From assembly GCF_041886205.1 (NCBI RefSeq), contig NZ_CP169029.1: a stretch of DNA of 64,000 nucleotides. One strand, 5' to 3'. The number at the start of each line of letters is the position of its first letter. Position 1 is the first letter of the stretch. The notes under the pieces are model-generated. The model was not told where the DNA came from. It was given only the letters and a program-made list of their open reading frames with translations, and did no database searches. Shown here piece by piece: positions 15,499 to 54,141 of this stretch. Source of the DNA: Escherichia coli (GTDB lineage: Bacteria; Pseudomonadota; Gammaproteobacteria; Enterobacterales; Enterobacteriaceae). Made by a program: the position numbers and the translations under genes.

Positions 15499-15507
15499 TG
15501 TTTTTAA

Positions 15508-15540
15508 TTTATTCAATGAATTTATGTTTCATTGAATAAA
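15508..15540. repeat. perfect 13-bp AT-rich inverted repeat (tttattcaatgaa / ttcattgaataaa, 7-nt loop) 10 bp after the amiC stop
   Basis: Read directly from sequence; lies at the left edge of the accessory island. Confidence 0.5.
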
Positions 15541-15689
15541 TATTATTTACATAAATGTTGAACGATGGTTTTGTGACTGCTGTCGAATATTTGAATATCG
15601 GCTTAAAAAATAAGCCTGTCATCTCTTTTATTAAGCACAATTCCGTGTAAGGTATACGCATTAGTTAATTATCTTGTAACTGTTAAATC

Positions 15690-41632: not shown

Positions 41633-41650
41633 ATGCGCTGATGTGATAAT

Positions 41651-41683
41651 GCCGGATACGACGCTAGCCGCGTCTTATCCGGC
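41651..41683. repeat. REP-like palindromic element (gccggatacgacg / cgtcttatccggc) downstream of fucO
   Basis: Read directly from sequence between convergent fucO and xni; matches the E. coli REP family pattern GCCGGATA...TATCCGGC. Confidence 0.6.
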
Positions 41684-41736
41684 ATATAAGTGCATTAAAT
41701 TCAATGTGTTGATAATCGTTTGCATACGGCACGTCG

Positions 41737-48199: not shown

Positions 48200-48266
48200 G
48201 TTTCACCGTCATAAACCAGATAAACTAAACGACAAGTGTATCTGGTTTAAGTGAAGAGAAAAATTA

Positions 48267-49031: not shown

Positions 49032-49388
49032 GAGTCAGACAACGAAGTGAACATCAGGATGATGACACTTCTGCAGGACACACCAGGATGGTGTTTCAGG
49101 GAAAGGCTTCTGGATGAAGCGAAGAGGATGACGCAGGACGCGTTAAAGGACACCTCCAGGATGGAGAATGAGAACCGGTCAGGATGATTCGGTGGGTCAG
49201 GAAGGCCAGGGACACTTCAGGATGAAGTATCACATCGGGGTGGTGTGAGCAGGAAGCAATAGTTCAGGATGAACGATTGGCCGCAAGGCCAGAGGAAAAG
49301 TTGTCAAGGATGAGCAGGGAGCAACAAAAGTAGCTGGAATGCTGCGAAACGAACCGGGAGCACTGTGAATACAGTGCTCCCTTTTTTT
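49032..49388 (+). ncRNA. csrB: CsrB small RNA (CsrA-sequestering sRNA with repeated GGA motifs)
   Basis: Starts GAGTCAGACAACGAAGTGAACATCAGGATGATGACAC; carries about 16-18 GGA motifs, many as CAGGATG; ends with hairpin GGGAGCACTGTGAATACAGTGCTCCC plus U7 (49356-49388). Confidence 0.92.
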
Positions 49389-49433
49389 ATTCCTGCTATC
49401 CTTCGCGGCAGTTTTTCTTATTGAGGTTGCTTT

Positions 49434-50562: not shown

Positions 50563-51012
50563 ATGGCGGAAATTGGTATTTTTGTCGGCACCATGTACGG
50601 AAATTCGCTGTTAGTGGCGGAAGAAGCAGAAGCAATTCTGACCGCACAGGGCCACAAAGCAACGGTATTTGAAGATCCTGAATTAAGCGACTGGCTGCCC
50701 TATCAGGATAAGTATGTTCTGGTGGTTACGTCCACGACCGGGCAGGGCGACCTTCCTGATAGCATTGTGCCGCTCTTTCAGGGAATCAAAGATAGTCTGG
50801 GCTTCCAGCCGAATCTGCGTTATGGCGTGATTGCGCTCGGCGACAGCAGTTATGTAAATTTCTGCAATGGCGGCAAACAGTTCGATGCCTTGTTGCAGGA
50901 ACAGAGCGCTCAGCGGGTTGGCGAAATGCTGTTGATTGACGCCAGTGAGAACCCGGAACCGGAAACGGAATCAAATCCGTGGGTCGAACAGTGGGGCACG
51001 CTGTTGTCCTGA
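50563..51012 (+). CDS. yqcA: flavodoxin YqcA (149 aa)
   Basis: 149 aa short-chain flavodoxin; [26 protein letters not shown]. Confidence 0.9.
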
Positions 51013-51064
51013 TATGTTCAGCGAGCGGTAAATGCCGTTTTAGCGGTGCTGAATCGAATCTTTT

Positions 51065-51121
51065 CAGGCAAATGCCAGTAAAAACTGCTTCATAGCGCGG
51101 ATTTTTACTGGCGTTTGCCTG
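51065..51121. repeat. 20-bp-arm inverted repeat (caggcaaatgccagtaaaaa / tttttactggcgtttgcctg, 1 mismatch, 17-nt loop) downstream of yqcA
   Basis: Read directly from sequence; about 50 bp after the yqcA stop. Confidence 0.5.
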
Positions 51122-51446
51122 GAGTCAAGCGATCCATTTCATACTCTTCTTTATTTCTTCGTTTTTACCCTTCCTTTCTTGTTCTTGTTTTCATTTCCGT
51201 GAAGTGGATTCCACCGTCCAGGGCTAATGCCAAAATCGGGCCTCATTGAACGCATTAATGTTGTGTTGTTGCACGGTGAGCCGCTATGGCGCGCTTTTTA
51301 TACTGCTATTGCCAGATATAAACACGCGCCGTATTCGGCGAACGACCTATAAAAACGGCAAAAAACACCCTACGTCACCTCTGATTTCCTGGCGATGTCG
51401 CAGTCCAGAGTGAGCGTGGCTAACGCGAATTTTCAGGAGTGCAACA

Positions 51447-52799
51447 ATGAGTTCTTTAAGTCAGGCTGCGAGCAGTGTGGAAAAACGCACGAATGCTCGT
51501 TACTGGATAGTGGTGATGTTGTTTATCGTCACATCCTTCAACTACGGCGACCGCGCTACGCTTTCTATTGCCGGTTCGGAAATGGCCAAAGATATCGGCC
51601 TTGATCCCGTGGGAATGGGCTATGTGTTCTCTGCCTTCTCATGGGCTTATGTTATCGGGCAGATCCCTGGTGGTTGGTTGCTGGATCGTTTTGGTTCAAA
51701 ACGCGTCTATTTCTGGTCGATCTTTATCTGGTCGATGTTTACCTTGCTGCAAGGCTTCGTCGATATCTTTAGTGGATTCGGCATTATCGTTGCCCTGTTT
51801 ACGCTGCGCTTCCTGGTCGGGCTTGCTGAAGCGCCATCTTTCCCCGGCAACAGTCGCATTGTTGCGGCCTGGTTTCCGGCGCAGGAAAGGGGAACGGCGG
51901 TGTCGATTTTTAACTCCGCTCAATACTTCGCAACGGTGATCTTCGCGCCGATTATGGGCTGGCTGACGCATGAAGTGGGCTGGTCACACGTCTTCTTCTT
52001 TATGGGCGGTCTGGGCATTGTCATCAGCTTTATCTGGTTGAAAGTCATCCACGAGCCAAATCAACATCCGGGGGTAAATCAGAAAGAGCTGGAGTATATC
52101 GCCGCGGGTGGCGCGCTGATCAATATGGATCAGCAAAACACCAAAGTTAAAGTGCCATTCAGCGTGAAGTGGGGACAGATCAAACAACTGCTCGGGTCAC
52201 GGATGATGATCGGCGTTTATATTGGTCAGTACTGTATCAACGCCCTGACTTACTTTTTCATTACCTGGTTCCCGGTTTATCTGGTGCAGGCGCGTGGGAT
52301 GTCGATTCTGAAAGCGGGCTTTGTGGCTTCCGTTCCGGCGGTTTGCGGTTTTATCGGCGGTGTCCTGGGTGGGATTATTTCCGACTGGCTGATGCGCCGC
52401 ACGGGATCGCTGAACATTGCGCGTAAAACACCGATCGTAATGGGCATGTTGCTGTCGATGGTGATGGTGTTCTGCAACTACGTCAACGTTGAGTGGATGA
52501 TCATCGGCTTTATGGCGCTGGCCTTCTTCGGTAAGGGCATCGGGGCGCTGGGTTGGGCAGTAATGGCAGATACCGCGCCAAAAGAGATCAGCGGTCTTTC
52601 CGGTGGCCTGTTCAACATGTTCGGTAACATTTCTGGCATCGTCACGCCAATCGCAATTGGTTATATCGTTGGCACGACTGGCTCCTTTAATGGGGCGCTG
52701 ATTTATGTTGGTGTTCATGCCTTAATCGCGGTACTGAGCTACCTGGTGCTGGTGGGCGATATCAAGCGTATCGAGCTGAAACCTGTCGCGGGGCAATAA
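51447..52799 (+). CDS. gudP: glucarate/galactarate MFS transporter GudP (450 aa)
   Basis: 450 aa MFS permease upstream of gudX-gudD. Confidence 0.92.
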
Positions 52800-52800
52800 G

Positions 52801-54141
52801 ATGACGACACAATCCAGTCCTGTTATTACTGATATGAAAGTCATTCCGGTCGCCGGACATGACAGCATGTTGCTCAATATTGGTGGTGCGCATAACGCAT
52901 ACTTCACCCGCAATATCGTGGTACTCACCGATAACGCCGGGCATACCGGCATTGGTGAAGCGCCAGGCGGAGAGGTGATTTATCAAACACTGGTCGATGC
53001 TATTCCGATGGTTCTGGGCCAGGAAGTTGCGCGACTGAATAAAGTGGTCCAGCAGGTGCATAAAGGTAATCAGGCGGCCGATTTTGATACCTTCGGTAAA
53101 GGGGCCTGGACTTTTGAATTGCGCGTTAATGCCGTGGCGGCGCTGGAAGCCGCCTTGCTTGACCTGCTAGGTAAGGCGTTGAATGTTCCGGTCTGCGAAC
53201 TGTTAGGGCCAGGCAAGCAACGCGATGCTATTACCGTCCTCGGTTATCTGTTTTATATCGGTGATCGGACCAAAACCGATCTTCCTTATCTGGACAATAC
53301 GCCGGGCAACCATGAGTGGTATCAGTTGCGGCATCAGAAAGCGATGAACAGCGAAGCCGTTGTGCGTCTGGCGGAAGCCTCACAGGATCGCTATGGCTTT
53401 AAAGATTTCAAACTTAAGGGCGGGGTGTTACCTGGCGAGCAAGAAATCGACACTGTTCGTGCATTGAAGAAAAGCTTCCCGGATGCGCGGATTACCGGTG
53501 ATCCCAATGGTGCCTGGCTGCTTGATGAAGCCATTTCTCTGTGCAAAGGGCTGAATGATGTTCTTACCTATGCCGAAGATCCATGCGGCGCAGAACAGGG
53601 CTTCTCCGGACGTGAAGTGATGGCGGAGTTTCGGCGGGCGACCGGCTTGCCCGTCGCGACTAACATGATCGCCACCAACTGGCGCGAAATGGGTCATGCG
53701 GTGATGCTCAATGCGGTAGATATTCCACTTGCCGATCCGCACTTCTGGACGCTTTCCGGTGCAGTCCGCGTGGCGCAGCTTTGCGACGACTGGGGGCTGA
53801 CCTGGGGCTGCCATTCTAATAACCATTTCGATATCTCTCTGGCGATGTTTACCCATGTGGGCGCGGCGGCACCGGGTAATCCTACCGCTATCGATACCCA
53901 CTGGATTTGGCAGGAGGGCGATTGTCGCCTGACCAAAAATCCGCTGGAGATTAAAAACGGAAAAATTGCCGTTCCTGATGCGCCCGGTCTGGGCGTGGAA
54001 CTGGACTGGGAACAGGTACAAAAGGCACATGAGGCCTATAAACGTCTGCCTGGCGGTGCGCGTAACGACGCAGGTCCGATGCAGTACCTGATCCCCGGCT
54101 GGACCTTTGACCGTAAACGTCCCGTTTTCGGCCGTCATTGA
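52801..54141 (+). CDS. gudX: glucarate dehydratase-related protein GudX (enolase superfamily, 446 aa)
   Basis: 446 aa paralog of the downstream gudD with the same motif architecture. Confidence 0.92.

Follow-up and report, generated by a model that had tools for sequence, protein, structure and literature searches.

The yqcA-gudP intergenic region of Escherichia coli was found to contain a very stable stem-loop on the 3′ side of yqcA, which is an apparent descendant of an intrinsic terminator that can still be made out in Citrobacter, Salmonella, Superficieibacter and the Raoultella group. In the best explanation, held with about even confidence, the yqcC-truC-yqcA mRNA owes the position and the protection of its 3′ end to this terminator-derived stem-loop, while Rho acts on the C-rich tract next to it. 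The hairpin is most likely an element of an ordinary kind that was simply unannotated. If the explanation is true, the transcripts of a core E. coli operon would end at an element absent from the annotation. Three arm-perfecting substitutions have cost an intrinsic terminator its U-tail there and would have made it a Rho-associated protective stem-loop insulating the promoter of a sugar-acid operon; the element would be useful for 3′-end annotation and for those who build glucarate biosensors with the gudP promoter region as a part.

Position and folding of the hairpin

The window (the whole stretch of E. coli DNA that was analysed, 64,000 nucleotides) lies in reverse orientation relative to K-12, and the K-12 coordinate equals 2973547 minus the window coordinate. 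The + strand was found to contain the gene order CsrB, yqcC, truC, yqcA, gudP (51447-52799) and gudX, with yqcA as the last gene of the yqcC-truC-yqcA run and the hairpin in its 3′ flank. The end of yqcA at 51012 and the start of gudP at 51447 leave exactly the 434 bp given in the initial annotation, and zero annotated features were found between the two genes in the K-12 RefSeq record. The known small RNA CsrB, annotated in K-12, was located at 49032-49391 (Rfam RF00018, 383 bits), 43 nt upstream of yqcC. A 38-aa ORF (50979-51095) and a 44-aa hydrophobic TTG ORF (51115-51249) were rejected as real genes; the spacer is unconserved in sequence, and they were rejected because its length of 60 versus 61 nt across genera breaks the frame. 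The features of the hairpin and its flanks were as follows.

50563-51012, + strand: coding sequence of yqcA (flavodoxin), from the ORF list and the K-12 annotation (b2790).
51049-51056, + strand: conserved block CTGAATCG directly 5′ of the hairpin, continuing as CTGAATCGnGTTAGC in other genera, from the alignments.
51062-51124, + strand: full extended stem-loop of 27 pairs including G-U, with one bulged A, folded in context.
51065-51084, + strand: 5′ arm of the 20-bp inverted repeat, CAGGCAAATGCCAGTAAAAA, ending in an A-run (51080-51084).
51073-51083, + strand: 5′ half of the 11-bp core helix, pairing with 51103-51113 and including A51077-T51109, from the RNAalifold consensus of 14 sequences.
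51085-51101, + strand: tip with a 4-bp inner stem (51085-51088/51097-51100), a loop (51089-51096) and the bulged A51101, from the fold and the divergence.
51102-51121, + strand: 3′ arm, TTTTTACTGGCGTTTGCCTG, starting with a U-run (51102-51106) that is an apparent relic of the U-tract of the inner terminator.
51117-51121, + strand: GCCTG, an outer extension of the stem that is Escherichia-specific and pairs with CAGGC at 51065-51069; the others contain TCATA within a TTTTCAT tail.
51124-51132, + strand: conserved block GTCAAGCGA, abutting the 3′ arm and present also in genera without the hairpin, from the alignments.

The two arms and their single mismatch were confirmed where the initial annotation had put them (51065-51121), with a gap of 17 nt between the arms and the 5′ arm beginning 53 nt past the yqcA stop, which had been given as about 50 bp. 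The arms were found to form 19 Watson-Crick pairs and one T·G, and the sole mismatch, T51073 against G51113, is a G-U wobble in the + strand RNA and A.C on the − strand. The stem extends inward by 4 pairs beyond the bulged A51101 and outward to 51062-51124, so that the contiguous duplex of 20 pairs including the G-U rises to 27 pairs with the extensions and one bulge, a length sufficient for RNase III (about 20 bp or more).

The folding energy, which had been proposed as a check, was −36.8 kcal/mol for the + strand 57-mer (z = −9.0), with 0 of 200 shuffles equally good. The − strand 57-mer folded at −30.2 kcal/mol (z = −7.9), the weaker value arising because the wobble position becomes A.C there, and the 87 nt of 51050-51136 folded as RNA at −44.7 kcal/mol (z = −8.2). 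The apical loop and the weak inner stem (4 bp, −3.9 kcal/mol) together span the 17 nt of 51085-51101, a fast-evolving tip that was found in two haplotypes in Escherichia.

The hairpin was the longest inverted repeat of the window, followed by a runner-up of 15 pairs, and 20 block-shuffled windows contained at most 14 pairs; the repeat is far beyond chance expectation. The next-longest inverted repeats (14-15 pairs) were found at 41649-41685, 48212-48249 and 15507-15541, and the first of these (ATGCCGGATACGACGC...GCGTCTTATCCGGCAT) resembles a REP-type palindrome.

Conservation and covariation across genera

Conservation across Enterobacteriaceae, the second check proposed, was followed in a comparative set of 80 loci, one per species, collected with YqcA as query, and gudP was found after yqcA at a distance of 278-515 nt in 68 of them. 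A homologous hairpin was present in all six Escherichia sequences, in part of Citrobacter (koseri, amalonaticus and sedlakii types), in Salmonella arizonae and diarizonae and in Superficieibacter, followed by the presence of weaker homologous hairpins in the Raoultella group, Silvania, Kosakonia and Phytobacter. The hairpin was missing from the Enterobacter and C. freundii types, in which the spacers are short. Within the species, it was present in 5425 of 5426 complete E. coli genomes, with the 63-nt stem identical in 4847 of the 5425. In E. coli EC6563 (NZ_CP095856.1, locus L083, 2501-2873), gudPXD was found to be lost and the convergent barA follows directly after the first 157 nt of the spacer; yqcA and the hairpin are retained there, and the break falls inside the pyrimidine tract.

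The divergence of the arms among Escherichia species was 10/200, against 0.14-0.30 at 4-fold sites, and rose to 0.12-0.25 relative to Citrobacter and Salmonella, where 4-fold sites diverge by 0.53-0.60. The loop diverged by 0.12-0.59 within Escherichia and by 0.65-0.76 relative to Citrobacter and Salmonella, which is the neutral rate or above. In an alignment of 20 sequences, 75.6% of the cells were found to pair, against 32-48% with the partner slid. The tip sequences were wholly different between genera and yet pair with themselves as CCTTTC/GAAAGG, CCACT/AGTGG or CCGC/GCGG. These slow arms and the fast loop, the register-specific pairing and the tip pairing maintained despite sequence change argue for a stem that has probably been under selection.

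The 11-bp core helix was common to Escherichia, Citrobacter, Salmonella and Superficieibacter, and contained the covarying pair 40-72 (A51077-T51109), found as AU in 7, CG in 6 and UA in 3 sequences. The column-wise covariation was carried mainly by this one pair, and RNAalifold returned the 11-bp core only, in 14 sequences, and nothing once the Raoultella group was added. Among the 20 homologues 46 + strand G-U cells were found versus 24 A.C cells, and 2 of the 4 arm SNPs in E. coli strains are C>T opposite G, a mild signal that favours the + strand RNA.

The loop was found in two very different haplotypes among Escherichia species (51085-51101; L003, L005 and L006). The L006 loop, read as its reverse complement, was found to approximate the L003 loop (17 of 2000 shuffles, without correction for 8 comparisons), by which it is weakly suggested that the spacer between the arms was inverted between haplotypes.

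Terminator ancestry and changes in Escherichia

Outside Escherichia, the tip stem was found to be followed by 5-7 T, and the long stem was followed by TTTTCAT in most of the homologues. The orthologous tip stem and T-run were called terminator-like by the scanner in Citrobacter (L008, both strands) and in Superficieibacter (L053, + strand). Other genera were found to contain a separate canonical terminator at the yqcA stop, such as CCCTCCCCCTACCGGGAGGG followed by TACCTTTTCG in Salmonella, and this terminator was present also in Superficieibacter.

The Escherichia sequences contained neither this yqcA-proximal terminator nor about 70 nt of the spacer. Their 3′ arm contained GTTTGCCTG versus GTTTTCATA elsewhere, and each of the three differences adds a Watson-Crick pair with CAGGC, which has stayed the same in the 5′ arm, the pairs 28-84, 30-82 and 32-80 forming essentially in Escherichia only. 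The three substitutions therefore convert the U-tail into five extra base pairs, and as the proximal terminator is lost as well, what remains in E. coli is a very stable stem-loop that lacks a U-tail.

Of the readings offered in the initial annotation, that of a terminator was the best supported, through its terminator-like orthologues in Citrobacter and Superficieibacter, with the qualification that the E. coli hairpin is not a canonical intrinsic terminator. The full stem was found to be followed by GAGTCAAG, which contains no U-tract (at least 5 U in 8 nt), and the core stem by TTTGCCTG, with 4 T in 8 nt; the TTTTT run is inside the 3′ arm. The consensus terminator scanner made no call at the E. 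coli hairpin, because the only U-run (51102-51106) sits in the 3′ arm behind the 4-bp stem of −3.9 kcal/mol, and no other terminator was called after yqcA.

The arm-perfecting pattern could reflect selection for a longer stem or, equally, one hairpin-templated mutation. In such a quasipalindrome template switch, a single event can perfect one arm from the other. A functionless relic in E. coli, that is, an old terminator with arms kept alike or perfected by templated mutation and not by selection, is a rather improbable explanation of the whole element, although the three Escherichia changes all lie in the 3′ arm, each turning a mismatch into a Watson-Crick pair while the U-tail was destroyed, which is the pattern expected from one template-switch event. 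Several mismatches are also tolerated in some Escherichia lineages (the L002 fold has −26.7 versus −40 kcal/mol), and single disruptive SNPs occur in E. coli strains. Such a relic is contradicted by the arms, whose conservation across genera is 3-5 times that of synonymous sites, in contrast to the loop, by the identity of the stem in the large number of E. coli genomes given above, and by the persistence of hairpins with different tips in several genera.

Published transcript data and RNase III

The steady-state ends of Rho-dependent E. coli transcripts were placed by Dar and Sorek 2018 (PMC6061677) directly after stable stem-loops, which were without U-rich tails and were followed by an enrichment of C over G downstream, where the rut sites were placed. 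Termination itself was described as diffuse and located further downstream, with PNPase and RNase II then halted by the same stem-loops (Dar and Sorek 2018, PMC6061677). Positions with at least 30-fold coverage in an rnc deletion mutant relative to the wild type were screened by Gordon et al. 2017 (PMC5371410), whose Table S1 was found to contain K-12 position 2922422, "intergenic gudP-yqcA", with 48 reads in the rnc mutant versus 0 and 1 in the wild type.

51125, + strand: equivalent of K-12 2922422, the first nucleotide after the extended stem, T of GGAGTCAAG, checked on the K-12 sequence.

The wild-type counts of 0 and 1 fit a transcript boundary at the hairpin base. Table S1 also contained gudP (2921931, 2921482), gudX (2920262, 2919492), garP, cdaR and hundreds of silent genes (Gordon et al. 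2017, PMC5371410). The gudP and gudX positions occur every 400-500 bp (K-12 2919492-2922422, window 51125-54055) with garP and cdaR elsewhere, and the gud, garP and cdaR positions had 15-65 reads in the rnc mutant versus 0-2 in the wild type. Since gudP, gudX, garP and cdaR are all raised, the whole CdaR regulon looks more expressed in the rnc mutant library, and since similar numbers occur in many silent genes, differential expression or background explains the 2922422 entry equally well; the entry falls short of proving cleavage by RNase III. Neither yqcA nor gudP was listed, as a Term-seq entry or otherwise, in the available parts of the supplementary material of Adams et al. 2021 and of Yan et al. 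2018.

A site of RNase III processing, compatible with the protective stem-loop, is improbable to the same degree as the relic. The 24-27-bp duplex would form only on RNA that reads through the inner U-run, and the cleavage would trigger decay of the downstream read-through RNA, of the upstream yqcA message or of both, as in lambda sib/tI; if true, the hairpin would be one of the rare cases of sib-like retroregulation on a chromosome. The stem has the length for this, the U-run within the 3′ arm mirrors the nested layout of lambda tI/sib, and the listed position with its 48 rnc mutant reads lies 1 nt past the stem. However, 2922422 ranks low in a long and non-specific list in which hundreds of silent-operon positions have about 50 versus 0-2 reads, the regular spacing of the gudP and gudX entries, listed together with garP and cdaR, has the look of an expression difference or background, and Gordon et al. 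2017 report no in vitro cleavage at the hairpin site. Slightly less probable still is a chromosomal counterpart of lambda sib, in which a weak terminator within the 27-bp read-through duplex would act as an RNase III-gated insulator between yqcA and gudPXD; the read-through would then persist without RNase III, which would explain the higher gudP and gudX positions in the rnc mutant.

Downstream tract and gudP control region

The remainder of the spacer was found to contain a pyrimidine-rich tract followed by the presence of a conserved promoter-like sequence.

51137-51205, + strand: pyrimidine-rich tract with C over G, candidate rut region, 81% pyrimidine, ending in the conserved TTTTCATTTCCGTGAAG (51188-51204).
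51276-51304, + strand: predicted gudP promoter GTGAGC-17-TATACT, from homology to the scanner-called Citrobacter and Superficieibacter sites and from the alignment.

No other 69-mer of the window was as rich in pyrimidines as the segment 51137-51205 (40 T, 16 C, 6 G and 7 A), and at 51125-51202 the C/G ratio per 78 nt rose to 2.86, whereas the window has a median of 0.89 and a 99th percentile of 1.85. The homologous spacers contained more C than G in 32 of 32 sequences and at least 2-fold more in 26 of the 32. A long-range pairing of GATCCATTTCAT with GTGAAGTGGATT around the tract was dropped, being E. coli-specific and unconserved.

The gudP promoter claimed for the same stretch in the initial annotation is plausible, with the conserved GTGAGC-17-TATACT as its predicted position, preceded by the conserved AATGTTGTGTTGTTGCACGGTGAG (51257-51280). 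The gudP start would lie near 51311, with the hairpin about 190-245 nt upstream; as the predicted promoter is about 190 nt downstream of the hairpin, the latter would lie outside the gudP transcript. From the hairpin base to the gudP ATG (51122-51446) the divergence among Escherichia species was 0.01-0.06 versus 0.14-0.30 at 4-fold sites, so that within Escherichia the synonymous sites diverge 3-10 times as much as this stretch, which must therefore also carry DNA-level gudP control sites. The pyrimidine tract diverged by 0.04-0.05 within Escherichia, which is tighter than a composition-only rut site requires, and the spacer from TCAAGCG to CATTTCCGTGA was 60-61 nt in all 32 sequences having both blocks. 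The fixed length of the tract points to a probable additional DNA-level role in gudP control, and the fixed TCAAGCG-CATTTCCGTGA spacing suggests a possible phased nucleoprotein architecture upstream of the gudP promoter.

Two further observations were made in this region. The heptamer TGCCAGT was found in the 5′ arm (51073-51079), with its complement in the 3′ arm (51107-51113) and TGCCAGA at 51310-51316 beside the predicted gudP start, and it was present also about 65 nt upstream of the hairpin in Salmonella and Citrobacter (L023, about 3500); the recurring heptamer is a possible protein-binding motif or chance. The gudP 5′ UTR contained a conserved helix at 51376-51427, CACCTCTG with CCAGAGTG (CATTCTG/CAGAATG in most genera), which was the RNAalifold consensus of 14 genera with compensatory changes at 3 pairs, followed by the presence of a second small hairpin, GCGTGGCTAACGCG, directly before the gudP Shine-Dalgarno sequence; these helices may be an unannotated leader structure.

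A DNA-level site, in which TGCCAGTAAAA...TTTTACTGGCG would bind a dimeric regulator (CdaR or another factor) as the distal end of the gudP control region, is less probable than the RNase III readings. The sequence conservation of the arms goes beyond pairing alone, the 3′ arm is joined to GTCAAGCGA without an indel and with a fixed length onward to the gudP promoter, including the 60-61-nt spacer, and the TGCCAG(T/A) motif occurs again beside the predicted gudP start. A palindromic operator is nevertheless contradicted by the inter-arm distance, which varies (Salmonella has 10 nt fewer, and the tips vary in length and sequence), and by position 40/72, which changes symmetrically in three forms. 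The arms covary mutually (CCAG/CTGG, CCTG/CAGG, CCCG/CGGG) and not with the other TGCCAGT copies, the tip stems and T-runs are hallmarks of a terminator, and many genomes with an intact gudP promoter region were found without the hairpin. The yqcA-gudP and CdaR-controlled garP-garD spacers contained nothing in common beyond 8-mers, and a shared CdaR motif was rejected.

Promoters, RNA families and repeats

Upstream of the hairpin, no + strand promoter-like site was found in E. coli, Salmonella, Citrobacter, Raoultella or Superficieibacter, and inspection by eye gave a single weak AT-rich hexamer without a −35. A minus-strand promoter, TTGACT-16-AAAAAT at 51128-51101, was rejected as being at chance level (1 found, 0.9 expected), with a −10 hexamer unconserved in other genera. 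In Rfam 15 no family matched the hairpin, the only overlap being a noise-level one with MIR6462 (18.6 bits, gathering score 96, E = 8.8), and nothing was found in the yqcA-gudP spacer of seven other genera; a known RNA family was rejected on this basis. The blastn search with 87-nt and 63-nt queries gave a median of 1 and a maximum of 2 places per genome in 5425 genomes, and a dispersed repeat or MITE (REP/BIME, ERIC) was rejected as the hairpin is single-copy. The literature search returned no paper naming yqcA with gudP or containing the hairpin sequences.

The small unannotated transcript of the initial annotation gained no support from these results in E. coli, and the hairpin as the terminator of a small RNA, with its own gene in a cassette of about 110 nt (from the yqcA-proximal terminator to GTCAAGCGA) or as an RNA processed from the yqcA 3′ UTR, with CTGAATCGnGTTAGC as the conserved single-stranded part, is very unlikely: a canonical terminator, conserved blocks and a second terminator-like hairpin occur together in Salmonella, Citrobacter, the Raoultella group, Kosakonia, Phytobacter and Silvania, and the cassette is present or absent as a unit (missing in L032, L042, L064 and L075, where the terminator is joined directly to GTCAAGCGA), but the five genera examined contain no + strand promoter-like site upstream, the E. 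coli sequence is without half of the cassette and without the 3′ U-tail that Hfq-type sRNAs need besides a promoter or processing site of their own, and neither an Rfam match in eight genera nor a mention in the literature was found.

Proposed mechanism

From the observed structure, conservation pattern, ancestry and downstream composition, the following course of Rho action, trimming and insulation is proposed. As + strand RNA, the hairpin would act where the yqcC-truC-yqcA transcript ends. The ancestral form had a tip stem with its U-run inside a longer stem, and UUUUCAU came after the latter; the Escherichia lineage lost the terminator after yqcA, and three 3′-arm substitutions turned its U-rich tail into five pairs. 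RNA polymerase would then largely pass the hairpin, and Rho would load on the C-rich, G-poor tract (51125-51205) and terminate there. The 3′-to-5′ exonucleases would trim the RNA back to the hairpin, which would set and protect the steady-state 3′ end, and as a net effect the yqcA mRNA would be stabilised and the read-through kept out of the gudP control region.

The protective stem-loop is supported by the position and strand of the hairpin, the selection on its arms, the conservation of the structure, the terminator ancestry, the lack of another E. coli terminator, the tract with C over G, the published class and the 2922422 entry. Against it, other genera contain the canonical terminator at the yqcA stop with the hairpin about 100 nt further on, so that the hairpin is unneeded as the primary yqcA terminator in those genera. 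Many Enterobacter-type genomes are without the hairpin, protective stem-loops are typically much shorter than this stem, the tract has a conservation and a fixed length beyond the needs of a rut site, the covariation lies mainly in one pair, and RNAalifold failed with the Raoultella group.

Comparison with known systems

The REP/BIME elements resemble the hairpin in being intergenic, palindromic and capable of blocking 3′ exonucleases, whereas the yqcA hairpin is single-copy and contains no REP consensus; the REP-like palindrome at 41649-41685 looks different from it. In the sib/tI region of phage lambda, a terminator lies inside a longer stem, and the RNase III site is formed only on read-through transcripts. 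The yqcA hairpin shares with sib/tI a terminator hairpin and U-run inside a longer duplex that forms only past the U-run, and a length suited to RNase III, whereas the two have no sequence relationship, the cleavage at the yqcA hairpin is hypothetical and the lone rnc data point is ambiguous.

The intrinsic terminators, including bidirectional ones with paired A- and U-tracts, have a G+C-rich stem of at least 5 bp and a loop of 3-8 nt. They are resembled by the orthologues, which were found to contain an upstream A-run, the tip stem, 5-7 T and a second TTTTCAT tail, whereas in E. coli a stem of only 4 bp (−3.9 kcal/mol) precedes the U-run and the full stem is followed by GAGTCAAG without a U-tract. 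The class of Dar and Sorek 2018, for which Rho action and trimming were described, differs in that the yqcA stem is far longer (20-27 bp), with internal A- and U-runs that appear to be left from an intrinsic terminator. The yqcA hairpin nevertheless shares with this class a stable stem-loop just past the gene (−36.8 kcal/mol, z = −9), no U-rich tail and an excess of C over G immediately downstream (51125-51202).
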